Shown: positions 51,785-58,341, numbered from the stretch's first letter. The stretch: DNA of 64,000 bases from Candidatus Micrarchaeota archaeon (GCA_021850805.1 JAJZKO010000002.1:39520-103519), one strand, 5' to 3'. A program made the numbers and translations. Notes: generated by a model from the letters alone, not told the origin.

Positions 51785-52111
51785 TTACAGGTTCTTATCG
51801 AGCCATTTCTTGAATGTATCCTCAGGAAGAGCGCCCACTGACATTGACTTAACTTTGCCATCTTCAAAAATCAGGACTGTAGGTATGCTCATTATGTTGT
51901 ACTCCTGTGCTATCTTGTTGTTCTCATCTACATTCAGCTTCCCGAAATTGACTTTGCCATCATAGGCCTTGGATACCTTCTCTATGACTGGAGAGAATAT
52001 CCTGCAAGGACCGCACCATTCAGCCCAGAAGTCTACAACGACAGGGAGCTTGGATTTTATTACGCTGCCTTCAAAATTTCCTTCATTCAATTCCATCATA
52101 TAATACACCAA
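51785..52111 (-). CDS. trxA: thioredoxin
   Basis: 108 aa. It contains VVDFWAEWCGPCR. Several closely spaced Met codons leave the exact start uncertain. Confidence 0.9.
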   Translation of the reverse strand: MVYYMMELNEGNFEGSVIKSKLPVVVDFWAEWCGPCRIFSPVIEKVSKAYDGKVNFGKLNVDENNKIAQEYNIMSIPTVLIFEDGKVKSMSVGALPEDTFKKWLDKNL

Positions 52112-52166
52112 TTAGTAATCGCAATAGATATTACACATTATTAATATAAAAATCAATCCTATGCTG

Positions 52167-53084
52167 CTATAGGGCCTTCTTCAGTTCCTCTATAAGGCTC
52201 ACGTCTGTAGGGTTGACTCCGCGCATCTTTCCAAGATGGTAGGATAAGTAATCCCCGTAATGTATCATATAAAAGAGCCTCGCTGCAAGGCTCTTCCCTT
52301 CAACTTCTATAAAATTGAACTTCGTCTGCGTAAGCCTTGAGGTTATCGCTATCCTTTCCTTTATCTCTTTCCTGTCCGAGTCAAATACCATGATGTAAAA
52401 TTCATCCTTCCTGTAAGTCTCAGCAAGAGCCATAGTATCATTATGATTTAATTCAGGAAAGCTGCTGCAATACGACAGGACCTTTGCGTTTTCGTTGAAC
52501 TGCGTCTTCCATCTGTACGCTACGCTGCTGAGAGGGTACGCGCCGTACACTACCGGTATCTTCTTGTTCCTCGATATCCTCTTTGCGTGCGTAAAGCATT
52601 CCTGGTTGTTGCGGTCAAGGCTCCCTATAACCCTATGTGCTTCTCTAATCCCTGCGGAATCAACGAGCCCAAAGCCGTTCATGAAAGGCATGAGCATGTA
52701 TCCTATTGCGGATCTCGGCTGCAGATCGGATCTAGGTATGCGTATCTTCTGGTCGCCGTATTCTTCTAGTGCGCCGCCAGAAGAGATGGTAACAACTCTG
52801 CATCCTTTCTGCACAGCACGTTTTGCCGCCTTTATAGTCTCTTCAGTATTGCCGGAATAGCTTACTGCAATGAAGAGCGTATCATTAGATAGATGCGCAG
52901 GCATGTTATACCCGTCTATAAGCGTTACTGGTTTCTCCGTGTATATCTCGCTGAATATCTTTCCGACTATGCCGGAGCCCCCCATTCCTGCAACAGCCAC
53001 ATTCCTGAATCTCTTTCCCGCATATATCTTCTCGCCAAAAAGCACCTGCTCCTTGAGAAAACCCAATTCCTCTGCAAATTCCAT
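52167..53084 (-). CDS. bifunctional phosphoglucose/phosphomannose isomerase (SIS domain, archaeal PGI/PMI type)
   Basis: 305 aa. It has the SIS motif VAGMGGSGIVG, plus FIAVSYSGNTEET. The size is typical of the PGI/PMI family. Confidence 0.7.
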   Translation of the reverse strand: MEFAEELGFLKEQVLFGEKIYAGKRFRNVAVAGMGGSGIVGKIFSEIYTEKPVTLIDGYNMPAHLSNDTLFIAVSYSGNTEETIKAAKRAVQKGCRVVTISSGGALEEYGDQKIRIPRSDLQPRSAIGYMLMPFMNGFGLVDSAGIREAHRVIGSLDRNNQECFTHAKRISRNKKIPVVYGAYPLSSVAYRWKTQFNENAKVLSYCSSFPELNHNDTMALAETYRKDEFYIMVFDSDRKEIKERIAITSRLTQTKFNFIEVEGKSLAARLFYMIHYGDYLSYHLGKMRGVNPTDVSLIEELKKAL

Positions 53085-53092
53085 AAGAAAAC

Positions 53093-54616
53093 CTATTTCA
53101 TTACCGTCTTCAGCACCTTCCTGCTAAGATCGAATACCCTAAGCATATGATTATTTGTATCTGTTATATATAGCTGACCGCGATAAACTTTTACGTCGTT
53201 AGGTTCGTAAAGCCCAAAGGCATCGCACTCCTTGTCTCCAAACCTGCACTCGGATCCTGCATGCGGTCTGCCTACAAGCCTGGTCACATTCTTCCTCTCT
53301 TCGTCTATGACCTTTACTGCACCGTTATAGGTATCTGCAACGTAGATATTCTTCCCTTCCTTGCAAATCCCCATGGGATGCTGGAGCATTGCATCAGGCA
53401 GCTGGCCTGCTTTGTCCCCATAAACGAAAAGCCCCCTGCCAATTATGGTACTCACGAAATCGAGATCAAGCGGAATGCTTCTTATCGATGAAGACTCGCT
53501 ATCTGCCGTATACACCCTCTTCCCATATGCAAAGATTCCGCTTGGCTGTGCAAACTCCGCGTTCCTTCTTCTGTCGTCGATAAGATTCTCATATCCATTC
53601 CCCGCAAAGACCTCAAGATAACCATTTTCAAGATCCAAAGTCCATATCTGGTGAAGCCCTGCCATGGCTATGAATGCCAATCCCTCCCACTCGCTGAAAG
53701 TAACATCCCATGGCGAATTCATATCGGTCTTAAGGCCCTCCATCCTTCTTCCAAATCTTACATATTGGCCTTTCTTTCCCGTCCCTGCTACAGTCTGGAC
53801 ACCTTTTTTGCTGCCTATGGATATGGCCTTTAGACTATGGTTACCCGTATCCGATACAAGAATCCTCCCGTCAGACAGCCAGCATAACCCCTGCGGATTG
53901 GCAAACGACGCGCTTTTCATCGGCTTTCCATTAAACCTCCCGTTTCCTATGATGTCCGATACCTCTGCCTTATTCCCCTTTATCCATCCTATGAGAATGC
54001 GTCCATTGCCAGAGTCGCTCAATGCAAATGCTCCTCCATGTCCCCCGCGGAAAGAGATCTTCGAAGGAAAGTTGAGGAAGGACTCTCTATTCCTCACCGC
54101 ACTCTTCCTCACCCAACTTATTCTGGACAATCTCCTGCCCGATGCAGGATACTTCCTCACCCTAATCTCTATCTTCCTGATTTCTTCCTCAAGCTGCGCT
54201 TCAGACTGTTCGCCGGCCTTCCTGTACCTTACGATCCCATCTGAATCTACGATAACTATTGTTGGCCATGCGTTGACAGAGTAGGCCTTCCATATCCTGC
54301 GATCCTTGTCCAGCACTACAGGGTGGGAGATGCCATACCTTGCAATTGCCTCTGCTACATTTGCCTCATCATTCTCCCCATCGAACTTTGCAGAATGTAT
54401 GCCTATGAAGACAACTCTTCCATCCATGCGTCTATCCTCTACACGCTTAAATACAGGGACCATATGCATGCAGTTTATGCAGCAATAGGTCCAGAAATCA
54501 AGGACCACTATCCTGCCGCGTAGAGCATCCATTGAGATACTTCCACTGAAGTTCACGAATTTTGTGTTATCTGGAAAAGCAGGTGCCATCCTCCCGGCAA
54601 ATCCCCCAAGCATCAA
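53093..54616 (-). CDS. thioredoxin-like domain fused to NHL-repeat beta-propeller
   Basis: 507 aa. The N-terminus VVLDFWTYCCINCMH is redoxin-like. It is followed by repeated NHL-like units (ADTGNH/ADSESS/ADTYNG/TDTNNH contexts). Confidence 0.75.
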   Translation of the reverse strand: MMLGGFAGRMAPAFPDNTKFVNFSGSISMDALRGRIVVLDFWTYCCINCMHMVPVFKRVEDRRMDGRVVFIGIHSAKFDGENDEANVAEAIARYGISHPVVLDKDRRIWKAYSVNAWPTIVIVDSDGIVRYRKAGEQSEAQLEEEIRKIEIRVRKYPASGRRLSRISWVRKSAVRNRESFLNFPSKISFRGGHGGAFALSDSGNGRILIGWIKGNKAEVSDIIGNGRFNGKPMKSASFANPQGLCWLSDGRILVSDTGNHSLKAISIGSKKGVQTVAGTGKKGQYVRFGRRMEGLKTDMNSPWDVTFSEWEGLAFIAMAGLHQIWTLDLENGYLEVFAGNGYENLIDDRRRNAEFAQPSGIFAYGKRVYTADSESSSIRSIPLDLDFVSTIIGRGLFVYGDKAGQLPDAMLQHPMGICKEGKNIYVADTYNGAVKVIDEERKNVTRLVGRPHAGSECRFGDKECDAFGLYEPNDVKVYRGQLYITDTNNHMLRVFDLSRKVLKTVMK

Positions 54617-54679
54617 ACCAAAATTGATTTGGAGTAAACCCTTTTAACCCTTCCCAGGAACAGCTAAAGTGGTGAATAT

Positions 54680-54967
54680 ATGGGGGCAGAAGAGGAAAGA
54701 CGAACAAGACGCAGAGAGACAAGGAGAAATGCAAGGGAAGCCGTAGACGAAGCGCGTCTGCAGGAGGTTCTCAAGGCAGCAGGAGCAAGGAGAGTGAACC
54801 CCGAAGCCGCACGTGCGTTGCGCGCAGTTACTGAGGAGGAAGCCGCAAGGCTTGCCGAAGAAGCAGTTGCTGTTGCTGAGGAAAGGGAAGAAGCGCAGGA
54901 AGTGCAGGCACAGCACGTTGCAGTAGCAGCAGCGAGGTTGAGGCAGCGGGCAAGGGAGGAAAGGTAA
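54680..54967 (+). CDS. histone-fold protein with Arg-rich N-terminal tail (atypical archaeal histone candidate)
   Basis: 95 aa. GGTGA lies 4 nt upstream of the ATG. The core LKAAGARRVNPEAARALRAVTEEEAARLAEEAVAVA...VQAQHVAVAAARL aligns position by position with the archaeal histone pattern KDAGAERVSDDA...L...EE....IA.EA...A....RKTI.AEDI.LA. The N-terminus is EEERRTRRRETRRNAR. Confidence 0.5.
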   Translation: MGAEEERRTRRRETRRNAREAVDEARLQEVLKAAGARRVNPEAARALRAVTEEEAARLAEEAVAVAEEREEAQEVQAQHVAVAAARLRQRAREER

Positions 54968-55081
54968 AAACCATCGTAAGTAAAGATTTGGGGGCGACCC
55001 CACTTTCATTATTTCCTATTATACGATAGTACACAACCTAATTGCAGGCATAAATTACTCACCACCAGCCCATGGAACAGT

Positions 55082-55855
55082 TCAGTATCCGCGTATCCCA
55101 GCAGCCACAAGCGCTTCCTTTTCCGCGAATGATATTGAGGCAGGCACAATTATGCAGAGTGCCTTTCCTGCAAGTCTGCTGCCGTCGTAAATCCTCATCT
55201 CATCAAGAGTGGCAGAGAACCTTACCGCACTATCCTTTCCGGCATCGGCCATTACTATGAACCTAATAGTCTCCAGCCTATTCCCACCGGACGCCTTGAT
55301 TGCATTCCCAAGTATCTCCGCAGCTTCTGCAAGCGTCATCGGGGTCCCTGGTTTGCGTATGTCAAGCAGAAGTAGCGTATGCTCTCCATTCTCAAGATTC
55401 CTCTCCACGTTCTTCAGGAAAGATATCGGCCTATAATTCTCCGACCAGAAGGGCAGGGTAACCGTAGGTCCGAACCTGTAGAAATCGAGGCCGCTCTCCC
55501 CTATCGCAGCAGAAAATACAGATGAAGAATGAAGAACGACAGTTTCTATCCCATGCCTCTGCGCTTCTGCGATTATTATCTTATGTGTCGTGGCTATAAG
55601 CGGATCCCCTCCTACGAGAATGCCTATGTCGCTGTTCTTGGCAGCCTTAATCGTATCCCACACCCTGTCCTCCAGGGCATTTCTCTCAATAGGCAATATT
55701 GCCTTGCCTAGCATATCGCTTAAGAAGGAGAGGTATTCGCCTGATACAAAAGAAGTATACGAATCAAAATATATGGCACCGCAGCGCTTCAGGTAATCCA
55801 AGGACCTCAGCGAGATATCCCCCTTCTCCAGCCCGAGACCTGCCAGTACGAGCAT
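55082..55855 (-). CDS. dph5: diphthine synthase
   Basis: 257 aa. It is a tetrapyrrole-methylase-fold protein with MLVLAGLGLEKGDISLRSLDYLKRCGAIYFDSYTS and VGGDPLIATTH. Confidence 0.85.
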   Translation of the reverse strand: MLVLAGLGLEKGDISLRSLDYLKRCGAIYFDSYTSFVSGEYLSFLSDMLGKAILPIERNALEDRVWDTIKAAKNSDIGILVGGDPLIATTHKIIIAEAQRHGIETVVLHSSSVFSAAIGESGLDFYRFGPTVTLPFWSENYRPISFLKNVERNLENGEHTLLLLDIRKPGTPMTLAEAAEILGNAIKASGGNRLETIRFIVMADAGKDSAVRFSATLDEMRIYDGSRLAGKALCIIVPASISFAEKEALVAAGIRGY

Positions 55856-55862
55856 CGAAACA

Positions 55863-56813
55863 CTAATCCTTTATGCCGTTGGTCGTAATCTTTATTACCG
55901 CCTCGCCTTCAGGCATATTTGGCGAGTCCACAAGCCTTACTATCCTCTTCTCCTCCTTGCTCTTGCGCATGTATAACCTTGTAGTTGCTGCGTGCGCTAT
56001 TACATTCCCCCCTACCGGTGTTGTCGGATCCCCAAAAAGTATTGCTGGATTGTCCATTACCTGGTTTGTTATGTAAACCGCAAGGCCGTACGTATCTGCA
56101 AGCATCTGCAGCTTGTGGATATGGCTGTTAAGTTTCTGCTGCCTCTCCCCAAGCGCCCCCCTGCCCATGAACTCTGACCTGAAGAGGGCCATCATCGAAT
56201 CCACTACGATAAGCTTTATGTTATTCTCCCTTATCAGTTTGTCGGCCCTTTCTATTGTAAGTATCTGCTGGGAAGTCGTGAGCGCCCTGACGAAATATAT
56301 CCTGCTCAGCGCATCTTTAGGGTCCATTCCCGCAGCCTTGGCTATTGATTCTATCCTCTCCGGCCTGAAGGTTCCTTCGGTATCAAGGAAGAGGATGCTT
56401 CCATCCAGTCCTCCTTTTCCCACGGGAAGCTGCACGTTGACGCATAGCTGGAAACCCAACTGTGTCTTACCAGATGCGAACTTTCCGTAAGCTTCGGTTA
56501 TGGCGCTAGTCTCTACCCCTCCGCCAAGGAGTTCATCCAAAGCCTCAGATCCTGTATTTATCTTTCCAAGGGCCTTCCTCTTTTCGTAGGCATCGTATCC
56601 AGTAGTAAAATCCACAGTGGTGGCCTGCCTAGCCGCCTCCACAGCTTTTTTAGCAGCCTCTGAACTCATGCCTGTAAGCTCTGCAATCTCGTATGGCGAA
56701 GCTGCAGCTATCTTCTCTATATCATCATATCCCTTCTCCTTGAGCTTATCCGCAGTAGCTGGTCCTATTCCTGGCAGGTCCTCAACGCCGTGTATGCCTT
56801 TTTCCTTAGCCAT
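55863..56813 (-). CDS. radA: DNA repair and recombination protein RadA
   Basis: 316 aa. It has an N-terminal HhH (LPGIGPATADKL), Walker A GKFASGKTQ and Walker B LIVVDS. Confidence 0.95.
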   Translation of the reverse strand: MAKEKGIHGVEDLPGIGPATADKLKEKGYDDIEKIAAASPYEIAELTGMSSEAAKKAVEAARQATTVDFTTGYDAYEKRKALGKINTGSEALDELLGGGVETSAITEAYGKFASGKTQLGFQLCVNVQLPVGKGGLDGSILFLDTEGTFRPERIESIAKAAGMDPKDALSRIYFVRALTTSQQILTIERADKLIRENNIKLIVVDSMMALFRSEFMGRGALGERQQKLNSHIHKLQMLADTYGLAVYITNQVMDNPAILFGDPTTPVGGNVIAHAATTRLYMRKSKEEKRIVRLVDSPNMPEGEAVIKITTNGIKD

Positions 56814-56900
56814 AAGAAATCACAAAATTAGCTCCTTAGACGTTATGGCTCTAAAATTATATAAACCTGCGCAGGGAGGCGCCGCCGAAGGCGATATCAT

Positions 56901-57599
56901 TCAATTCCGCTTCAGCTCGAAGATTGCAACATCGTACTCTACACCAGTCCTTCCCTCAGGTGCAAGCTCCGCATTTATCGAAGGAACATAGGCAAGCGGC
57001 GTATCCTGCACCCATGTGAACCTGCTTACCTCCCTCGCACTTCTGCGTGAACCTTCTATTACTTCCCCGATATCAAAGTACTCTCTTGATTCCGTAAACG
57101 GCTCCCTTCCATTTACCAGAATGGTGGTGGTTCTAGATATGGTATCAATCGCAAAGAGCCTCCCGTCCTCTTTCAGGACCCTGCACGCTTCTTTGTACGC
57201 TGCAATACTGTCCCCTATATCGCCTTTTCTGCCCCCGACTCCTGTTCTCTGCAGCTGCGAAAGAATGAGGGAGAGCACTGCCGAATCAAATTGCATGTCC
57301 TGTAACGGAAGTGCAACCGCATTTGCATTAACCGCCTTTGCATGTGTATGGAGCCTTGCTGCGTTGGCAACCGCTTCTTTATTAAGATCAACGAGCGTAC
57401 CACTAAACCCTGCTGGAAGCTCAAATCCATACCCGCACCCGATAACAAGCGCACCACTACCCGCTAAATTTTTATCACGGTAAAATTCCCTAAGTGGCGA
57501 ATAAAGGGTTGCATCCCATCTGGCAGAGTCTCCCATACTTATAAAAGTTCCGGCAAACCTGCCGGCATAACGCTGCACCATATGCCAATCAGCCATCAA
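56901..57599 (-). CDS. class I SAM-dependent methyltransferase
   Basis: 232 aa. It has motif I (ALVIGCGYGFE), followed by LVDLN and FDSAVLSLIL. It overlaps the upstream amidohydrolase gene by 11 nt. Confidence 0.6.
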   Translation of the reverse strand: MMADWHMVQRYAGRFAGTFISMGDSARWDATLYSPLREFYRDKNLAGSGALVIGCGYGFELPAGFSGTLVDLNKEAVANAARLHTHAKAVNANAVALPLQDMQFDSAVLSLILSQLQRTGVGGRKGDIGDSIAAYKEACRVLKEDGRLFAIDTISRTTTILVNGREPFTESREYFDIGEVIEGSRRSAREVSRFTWVQDTPLAYVPSINAELAPEGRTGVEYDVAIFELKRN

Positions 57600-58341
57600 G
57601 CTTCAGGAGCTTCGATATGTTTCCTCCAAGGACCTTCCTCTCGTCAGACCTGGAAAGTCCCGCCTTCTTTATCTTAAGCAGCTCTATCTCCTGATCCGAG
57701 TATGGGGCATCAGAGCCGAATATCACTTTATCAGCCCCTACCACCTTCTTCGTGACATAACCTATTAGGTAATTGCTAGAGAGCACAGAGGTCTCAACAT
57801 ACAGGTTGCGCCGTGCGGCTATCTCACCGAACGCGACATTTGACGCGCCGGCGAAGTGCCCTATTATTATATTCATCCTTGGGAAGAGTGCCGCGAGCTT
57901 GACTATCCTGTCAGGGTCGCTATTCGGGTTGTTCTCCTTTCTCGTATGGAATATTACCGGCTTGCGCGAATCCTCAATCATCTTATACACCCAGAAATAC
58001 TTCTTGTCAAGAGGGTCGAAGTTCTGGCTTCTCGGATGCAGCTTAACTCCCCTGAAAAGCGGCAGGTGCTCCTCCAAAGTATCCTTCGTTATTCTCTTGG
58101 GGTCGAATCTCAGGAAGTTTATGAACCTCCTATCCTTTCCGCATTTGCCAAGGAGCTCAATGCTCTTCTCGAGCACGTTTCCCTTTTCATTGAACGGGAA
58201 GACCACGGCCTTATCTATCTTATTGGCCTTCATGGAGAGCAGGAGCTCCTCCTTGCTCTGCATCGCACCGTCCAGATCTCCGCCTATATGCGTATGGACA
58301 TCAACTATCATGCCAACACTACTGATATCTTCCCTAATCAA
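57589..58341 (-). CDS. metal-dependent amidohydrolase (TIM-barrel, amidohydrolase_2-like)
   Basis: 250 aa. It has the N-terminal VDVHTHIG metal motif, an internal IIGHFAG, and a C-terminal FGSDAPY. Confidence 0.7.
   Translation of the reverse strand: MIREDISSVGMIVDVHTHIGGDLDGAMQSKEELLLSMKANKIDKAVVFPFNEKGNVLEKSIELLGKCGKDRRFINFLRFDPKRITKDTLEEHLPLFRGVKLHPRSQNFDPLDKKYFWVYKMIEDSRKPVIFHTRKENNPNSDPDRIVKLAALFPRMNIIIGHFAGASNVAFGEIAARRNLYVETSVLSSNYLIGYVTKKVVGADKVIFGSDAPYSDQEIELLKIKKAGLSRSDERKVLGGNISKLLKLDG

Follow-up and report, generated by a model that had tools for sequence, protein, structure and literature searches.

Archaeal histones serve as the reference point for the origin of eukaryotic chromatin, and recent surveys have aimed to list all of the prokaryotic types. 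Here, we ask whether a short open reading frame (ORF) of a Candidatus Micrarchaeota archaeon from acid mine drainage belongs among them and, if so, what its product might do. The DNA analyzed (hereafter, the window) is a 64,000-nucleotide stretch of contig 20 of genome G000, which is 0.88 Mb in size and 84% complete. A preliminary description of the window had singled out a 95-amino acid (aa) ORF as a histone-fold candidate, and both profile matches to histones and an AlphaFold2 (AF2) model support that proposal. We are highly confident in the joint claim that the ORF is a real gene, that its product is a histone-fold homologue, and that it belongs to an undescribed family.

A constrained gene on the plus strand

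The ORF occupies positions 54680-54967 (+), and its ATG at 54680 is the sole possible start in the stop-to-stop frame. Its composition is extreme, with 24 Ala, 20 Glu, and 20 Arg making up 67% of residues. As first described, the DNA is richer in G, C, and purines than its surroundings (GC of 0.58 versus 0.48 for the window; purine content of 0.68-0.75 versus ~0.5 in the flanks), and the opposite strand is also open, with an ORF of 121 aa at 54644-55009 (-). Coding status was accordingly said to need confirmation, which the same-genus genome G001 provides. The two versions of the plus-strand ORF differ at 19 nucleotides, comprising 18 synonymous changes (16 at third positions and 2 at first positions of Leu and Arg codons) and a single replacement (Asn40 to Ser). 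Other reading frames accumulate 4-17 replacements, or stop codons, in the same comparison. The antisense ORF, which has no Pfam match, contains stops and 32 amino acid differences in G001, and we regard it as spurious. The 95-aa ORF is a genuine plus-strand protein-coding gene under strong purifying selection.

The gene stands alone on the plus strand with no same-strand partner adjoining. Its divergent neighbor is a thioredoxin-NHL gene at 53093-54616 (-), and its convergent neighbors are diphthine synthase (Dph5) at 55082-55855 (-) and RadA at 55863-56813 (-). Identities between G000 and G001 are 80% for thioredoxin-NHL, 84% for Dph5, and 99.5% for RadA. With one replacement where two neighbors are 80% and 84% identical, the 95-aa protein is therefore among the most constrained at the locus. 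DNA of the window was present in mine-drainage, tailings, and sediment metagenomes from nine studies. A 99%-identical copy of the gene was found on a Candidatus Micrarchaeota metagenome-assembled genome (MAG) contig, and a scan with a narrower family alignment returned three Micrarchaeota contigs.

Several further observations concern the surrounding DNA. The first 92 nt of the ORF carry no changes relative to G001 and the other 196 nt carry all 19 (P ~0.001 if evenly spread), only three changes fall in the 60 nt 5' of the ORF, and positions 54616-54771 are 75% purine. This latter segment may be under extra constraint, from 5' mRNA structure, the translation start signal, or the promoter shared with the divergent gene; alternatively, recent recombination may have left a tract here. 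The thioredoxin-NHL product is a 507-aa protein with a thioredoxin-like/AhpC-TSA domain fused to NHL repeats. Short, high-depth contigs from three metagenomes match only 54460-54505, its active-site region, and then continue into unlike sequence, and the organism's own metagenome contigs tend to end between 54486 and 54700. The pattern probably stems from assembly around a conserved motif that other, more abundant organisms share. A box C/D guide RNA was also considered, and an Rfam scan over 54450-55150 with an E limit of 10 returned sub-threshold noise only.

Expression signals and transcription

Signals expected of an expressed gene surround the ORF. A putative TATA-like box, CTTTTAAC, lies at 54641-54648 (+), 32-39 nt 5' of the ATG, and is assigned from its position and its identity in G001. 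Most family genes in relatives have a TATA box at equal distance, often preceded by a CCGCAAAA-like element. The GGTGA reported upstream of the ORF is present at 54671-54675 (+), 5 to 9 nt before the ATG, resembles a Shine-Dalgarno (SD) sequence, and is conserved in G001. It recurs in orthologues, with GGTGA or GGGTGA 5-9 nt before the ATG in the acidic-clade genes (see below) of G051, G231, G057, G029, G045, G147, and G271. Downstream, a terminator-like hairpin (GGGG-GCGA-CCCC with flanking T runs) at 54987-55014 (+) is kept in G001 while the 20-nt spacer between stop and hairpin has diverged, and it may end the transcript. As a separate observation, many of the regions upstream of family genes in relatives (loci L028-L067) show CCGCAAAA(A/C), then TTTAAATA or TTATATAT at ~30-40 nt upstream of the ATG, together with a GGTG-type SD. 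This uniform pattern could provide a usable BRE/TATA consensus for Micrarchaeaceae.

Transcript evidence was searched for and consisted of one contig. A metatranscriptome library (run X18) from one of the source studies of the window DNA contains a 421-nt contig that covers 54682-55101 with no mismatches, and the rest of 52000-58000 was without cover in this run. The contig would fit an mRNA with a short leader. It is unstranded, and because an RNA library can contain DNA, it amounts to a hint rather than proof of transcription. Since the X18 data are contigs, they cannot rank the expression level of the gene.

Homology to archaeal histones and predicted fold

Having established that the gene is real, we turn to the identity of its product. 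A search with the histone-fold profile CBFD_NFYB_HMF (Pfam PF00808) gave a near full-length match (E = 0.0029, profile positions 6-64 of 65), but its score of 18.3 bits misses the curated cut-off of 21.4 bits. The NCBIfam model archaea_histone (NF043032) matched with E = 1.5e-6 and 28.6 bits, under its cut-off of 50. A family profile of 17 sequences searched against the PDB matched HMfA at E = 1.1e-6, followed by HPhA, HMfB, Asgard HHoB, and the M. kandleri doublet; the top seven matches were all histones and nothing else was significant. A profile-profile check with hhalign against the canonical histones of related genomes returned a 95.3% probability (E = 2e-8) over 58 columns. The protein is, by profile comparison, a homologue of archaeal histones. 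It had been described as matching HMf-type histones almost residue by residue, and while the alignment is beyond chance, that wording was overstated for a protein with ~27% identity to HMfB. Polar residues or Ala occupy several positions of the alpha2 core.

AF2 applied to a 43-row alignment produced a model with a pLDDT of 94.1 and a pTM of 0.80, in which DSSP assigns helices to residues 3-21, 24-33, 41-68, and 77-94. The predicted histone-fold core at 54749-54907 (+) comprises alpha1 (residues 24-33), L1 (34-40, with Arg38 equivalent to R19 of HMf), alpha2 (41-68), and an acidic L2 (69-76). It is followed by alpha3 (77-94) at 54908-54961 (+), which ends in RLRQRAREER and is ~8 residues longer than in HMfB. 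Residues 20-88 of the model superimpose on HMfB with a TM of 0.93 and an rmsd of 0.8 Å. A second superposition on HMfB gave Z = 9.0 and an rmsd of 1.0 Å over 67 residues, although Z scores of ~9 are reachable by chance for helical proteins and the weight of the comparison lies in its agreement with the sequence profiles. In a structure search of 48,161 representative chains that was independent of Foldseek, histone folds accounted for 47 of the 50 best matches. In the ESM Atlas, the nearest clusters were all archaeal histones, which we treat as a lead only. These structural comparisons rest on single-chain predicted models, and overlapping family alignments (A1 and A4) underlie both the profiles and the AF2 model, making the lines of evidence partly independent. 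Together they predict with high confidence a full-length histone fold with alpha2 and alpha3 of nucleosomal length.

Replacement of DNA-contact and tetramer residues

We next considered which of the defining HMf residues are kept. These residues were taken from PMC6136690 and PMC11390915, and their positions were mapped via profile alignments to HMfA and canonical histones. Among the DNA-anchoring residues R10, R19, K53, and T54, only R19 in loop 1 is kept (as R38), with R10 replaced by E29 and the loop-2 DNA contacts K53 and T54 replaced by Q73 and E74. In HMf-type histones, the R52-D59 salt bridge, or RxTxxxxD motif, structures L2 (PMC6136690, PMC11390915). Here, R52 corresponds to E71 and D59, which is also a tetramer contact, to H79; no family member has an Asp at the clamp column of alpha3. 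The tetramer contact H49 is replaced by E68, whereas L46 and L62 are conservatively replaced by V65 and V82. By this mapping, the protein has therefore lost the RxTxxxxD clamp, its loop-2 DNA contacts, and the polar contacts of the tetramer. The preliminary description had stated that the RKT of loop 2 is replaced by EEAQE, and R52-K53-T54 of HMfA do lie opposite E71-(A72)-Q73-E74.

The distribution of charge is altered along with these residues. Canonical histones of relatives carry mean net charges of +0.2 in the alpha-N segment, +2.5 in alpha1, and +3.3 in L2, versus +2.9, -1.1, and -1.4 in the acidic clade and +3, -1, and -4 in the 95-aa protein itself. The Arg-rich C-terminal stretch noted at the outset is present at residues 86-95, and the C-terminal extension has a charge of +2. 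Overall, the protein has a net charge of 0 (20 Arg, 1 Lys, 20 Glu, and 1 Asp) and a pI of 6.6. L2 charge ranges from -5 to +2 across the acidic clade, and the acidic loop is therefore not a fixed feature of the family.

A structured N-terminal helix

The N-terminal extension, originally likened to an Arg-dominated histone tail, deserves separate attention. An extension is present (residues 1-21), and 9 Arg fall within residues 7-26. The likeness to a tail did not hold, in that the protein has a single Lys (Lys32, in alpha1) and the extension is predicted to be helical and is conserved in the family. DSSP on the AF2 model places an Arg/Glu-rich helix, alpha-N, at residues 3-21 (54686-54742, +) with a pLDDT of 86-93. 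Ala18 of this helix is more than 90% conserved across the family. A representative of the basic clade with far more ordinary composition is also modeled with an N-terminal helix (residues 4-32, pLDDT > 90 for 11-30), and the helix is common to the family of some 45 protein clusters, basic clade included. Because the extension is predicted to be helical, conserves Ala18, and recurs as a helix in the basic-clade model, we predict that it is a structured family feature rather than a eukaryote-like disordered tail.

With alpha-N included, the best full-length structural match of the model was TAF11, at Z = 9.1 over 88 of 89 residues with an rmsd of 3.2 Å and 20-22% identity. Further full-length matches were 1bh9_B (Z = 8.8) and then TAF9, NC2, and CENP-S/X. 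H3 with its alpha-N helix aligned over 85-89 residues at ~5 Å rmsd. No match to Pfam TAF11 was found in any of the 17 family members scanned.

An unnamed family restricted to Micrarchaeales

Family membership was defined by a full-length profile match including the N-terminal helix, a length of 85-105 aa, and an Ala-rich alpha3 without the clamp Asp. The 95-aa protein has all of these features, scoring 81.8 bits over positions 8-91 of the family profile (alignment A4), which includes the query itself. A word-index search with the single protein returned only its self-match. Exhaustive search and the genomes of relatives provided full-length orthologues at 40-60% identity, and a profile search added 28 clusters. 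One row of alignments A1 and A4 comes from an unpublished genome (G050, locus L016). No count or claim depends on this row, and it was omitted from alignment A6, from the tree, and from the co-occurrence count. The family is missed by Pfam, NCBIfam, and PGAP naming: there was no precomputed Pfam domain on any member, member P0011 had no NCBIfam match at all, and every member found was named 'hypothetical'. About 45 clusters of 'hypothetical protein' can now be named histone-fold proteins.

Among 300 sampled genomes of the phylum, family matches (N-terminal helix included, at least about 40 bits) were confined to the window's own order, Micrarchaeales. These counts come from samples of incomplete MAGs, and absence means not found in those searched. 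Matches occurred in 57 of the 74 genomes sampled from the family holding the cultivated ARM-1, for which the name Micrarchaeaceae is taken from the accessible part of a survey table (PMC13260811). In the window's own family, they occurred in 2 of 54 genomes besides G000 and its congener G001. The best matches outside the order (up to 40 bits) were to N-terminally extended but otherwise canonical histones keeping RHAGR...RED, which form the sister group to the family in a quick maximum likelihood (ML) tree (SH-aLRT 85-89).

A quick ML tree of 93 columns divides the family into two clades. The 95-aa protein belongs to an acidic-to-neutral, Ala/Glu/Arg-rich clade of 10 rows (SH-aLRT 92), and the other clade of 29 rows (support 90) is basic, with a pI of ~10 and a loop 2 like AKRRG-TK. 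The two clades are old. Each of the seven published Micrarchaeaceae genomes in which an acidic-clade gene was found has a basic-clade gene as well, and G051 carries one of each. Given the probable assignment of G051 to ARM-1, this cultivated Micrarchaeon appears to hold one copy per clade, and the biology of the family is therefore testable at the bench.

The window's family holds the acidic clade alone, in G000, G001, G029, and G031, which represent three genera. Its acidic sequences interleave with those of Micrarchaeaceae in the tree, with modest support from the 93 columns. Interleaving together with acidic-only genera suggests that the patchy acidic clade arose through lateral transfer or much loss. 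No relatives of the protein were found in the viral contigs searched, and hence there is no sign that phages carried this patchy distribution. No conserved neighborhood emerged across five orthologues, whose flanks were unrelated (amino-acid kinase, PNP, MscS, malic enzyme, CDC48, and H+-PPase), and the thioredoxin-NHL, Dph5, and RadA neighborhood was common only to G001.

Other histones of the genome

A search for a canonical histone partner elsewhere in G000 found two genes. The first, on contig 9, encodes 64 aa and scores 78.5 bits. The second, on contig 25 (L002:1405-1803, -), scores 57.3 bits against NCBIfam and has a canonical core, QHAGRKT...DD. The contig 25 histone has N- and C-terminal extensions, with an ORF of up to 132 aa. 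N-extended histones resembling it in other Micrarchaeota families (G211 and G296) are sister to the new family, and from this position in the tree such histones may represent an intermediate step in its evolution. A fourth histone-fold gene was observed on contig 6 of G000 (L003:1465-1713, -). Its product is 82 aa with a short N-terminal extension and a loop 2 of EKRSKVTKKD, and its scores of 19.8 bits (Pfam) and 34.8 bits (NCBIfam) are below both cut-offs.

Possible functions

Given that the canonical DNA-contact residues are missing, the 95-aa protein probably deals with DNA in a way unlike that of ordinary archaeal histones. The reading that we favor, tentatively and with somewhat less than even confidence, is a dimeric accessory chromatin protein that contacts nucleic acid via its Arg-rich terminal helices and forms no hypernucleosomes. 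Extrapolating from the predicted fold, dimerization by the histone handshake would be kept. Positive charge would have moved from alpha1 and L2 to the alpha-N helix and the C-terminal extension of alpha3, and DNA, possibly RNA, would most likely be bound through these terminal helices, comparable to the way the H3 alpha-N helix touches DNA. The four-helix-bundle tetramers and hypernucleosomes of canonical histones would not be formed. A protein that bound in this way and made no tetramers would have an accessory role in chromatin, architectural or regulatory, alongside the two canonical histones of G000. Among the observations that weigh against this reading, the net charge is 0, the Arg/Glu alternation of alpha-N resembles a stable single alpha-helix spacer that need not bind DNA, the alpha2 core has the polar or Ala positions noted above, and the best full-length structural match, TAF11, is a histone fold that binds proteins and does not wrap DNA.

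A possible but distinctly less probable explanation is that the protein forms a heterodimer with a DNA-binding histone, either canonical or, where present, the basic-clade paralogue, and thereby serves as a capstone or decoy. In the mixed dimer, one L1-L2 site would be impaired or acidic and the tetramer interface would be missing. The dimer would therefore end or limit histone polymers, or buffer free histone, rather than the protein binding DNA by itself. Capstone histone variants have been proposed in other archaea, G000 has two canonical histone genes as potential partners, and the tetramer contacts H49 and D59 are lost. Furthermore, acidic and basic copies co-occur in 7 of 7 published sister-family genomes with an acidic copy, and the loop charges of the acidic and basic clades are partly complementary (L1 of +0.4 versus -1.3; L2 of -1.4 versus +4.0). 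However, the acidic clade occurs by itself in the window's family (the four genomes above), and pairing with the basic clade is therefore not obligatory. The wide range of L2 charge within the acidic clade also argues against a role built on a fixed acidic loop.

It is unlikely that the protein is a non-chromatin adaptor like TAF11/TAF13, NC2, or CENP-S/X, in which the fold and helices would serve protein contacts with, for example, TBP/TFB or repair factors rather than general packing of DNA. The order of full-length structural matches (TAF11, then TAF9, NC2, and CENP-S/X), the loss of canonical DNA-binding residues, and the net charge of zero are in keeping with such a role. At the level of sequence, however, no TAF-family match passed threshold, matches to TAF10 and TFIID-31kDa were weak and rare among members, and the closest relatives are archaeal nucleosomal-type histones. 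Moreover, there is no conserved gene neighborhood indicating a partner, and the pI of ~10 in the basic clade is that expected of nucleic-acid binders.

More speculatively, and by analogy with H3/H4 and H2A/H2B, the acidic and basic clades might constitute a dedicated heterodimer pair, a proposal to which we give only a slim chance. Such an asymmetric dimer, with an H3-like alpha-N, would form a discrete, non-polymerizing particle. Acidic-clade L1 and basic-clade L2 would together make one L1-L2 site strongly basic, the other site would be acidic, and in acidic-only lineages such as G000 the partner would be a canonical histone. If true, obligate histone heterodimers would have arisen independently in a lineage other than eukaryotes and giant viruses.

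Finally, the notion that there is no gene, or that the minus ORF is the real one, and that the histone likeness is an accident of Ala/Glu/Arg low complexity draws on the extreme composition, both strands being open, and single-sequence matches under curated cut-offs, but is very improbable in light of the 18 synonymous changes versus one replacement, a minus ORF that is broken in G001, full-length orthologues, the same fold predicted for the less biased basic clade, and significant histone matches at the profile level.

Comparison with known histone systems

HMf-type histone dimers wrap about 30 bp and polymerize into hypernucleosomes. Like HMf-type histones (HMfA/HMfB; PDB 1B67, 1A7W, and 5T5K), the 95-aa protein is predicted to have the alpha1-L1-alpha2-L2-alpha3 layout with an alpha2 of 28 residues and a full alpha3. 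It also keeps the AAGA-R-V loop-1 motif with the R19-equivalent Arg, and it is encoded by a small stand-alone gene. Unlike HMf-type histones (PF00808, NF043032), it scores below both cut-offs, carries 20 extra residues as an N-terminal helix, and has a longer alpha3. Its replacements at R10, the R52-D59 clamp, K53, T54, and H49 are accompanied by reversed charge in alpha1 and L2, and its pI is 6.6 versus ~9.5.

A second point of comparison is cluster 2 of Laursen & Luger 2026 (PMC13260811), the acidic singlet histones. These are ~68 aa, tail-less, have a median pI of 6.6, and are reported to retain a basic DNA-binding ridge. The 95-aa protein resembles them in its single fold, near-neutral pI, and basic singlets in the same genome, and it differs in its length of 95 aa, added helices, and acidic L2. 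The ARM-1 genome is 814,439 bp (PMC8784108), and the portion of the survey's source table available to us credits it with one histone, which is canonical. Neither the family motifs nor ARM-1's two family members were among the entries examined in that table (PMC13260811), which is weak evidence given the portion covered.

Tailed archaeal histones of Heimdallarchaeota LC_3, Huberarchaea, and Bathyarchaeota B23 (Henneman et al. 2018, PMC6136690) have Lys-containing, H4-like tails that were modeled as disordered. They share with the 95-aa protein a positively charged N-terminal extension before the histone fold. Unlike these histones, which have canonical cores (PMC6136690), its extension alternates Arg and Glu, is predicted to be helical, and is conserved, and its core is non-canonical.

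Schwab et al. 2024 (PMC11390915) described 17 categories of prokaryotic histones, including face-to-face, coiled-coil, and NCC histones. The family is akin to these categories in being a lineage-restricted histone-fold variant in a DPANN archaeon. It is unlike the alpha3-truncated and face-to-face histones (PMC11390915), in which alpha3 has 3-4 residues and alpha2 is 4-5 residues shorter, as its predicted alpha3 has 18 residues (77-94) and its alpha2 spans 41-68; HTkC (9f2c) matched the model with a Z of only 5.6. It appears to differ from the coiled-coil and NCC bridging histones (PMC11390915) in having no predicted long C-terminal coiled coil, no extra domain, and no operon partner, its alpha3 extending only ~8 residues beyond that of HMfB. 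Compared by their descriptions, none of the 17 categories (PMC11390915) pairs an N-terminal helix with a full histone fold that is without RxTxxxxD. We did not find a published description of the family, including in the two recent histone surveys (PMC11390915 and the accessible part of the source table of PMC13260811). The family shows that histone lists are still incomplete.

The layout of alpha-N plus histone fold, as predicted, is most like that of TAF11 (TAFII28) and H3. Unlike a true relative of either, the protein has no detectable sequence relationship to them, and the orientation of its alpha-N differs from that of H3. The resemblance is architectural only and most simply the product of convergence. 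In comparison with these known systems, what is new in the family is its H3/TAF11-like N-terminal helix, the placement of charge off the classical DNA-binding loops, and the split into acidic and basic paralogues.
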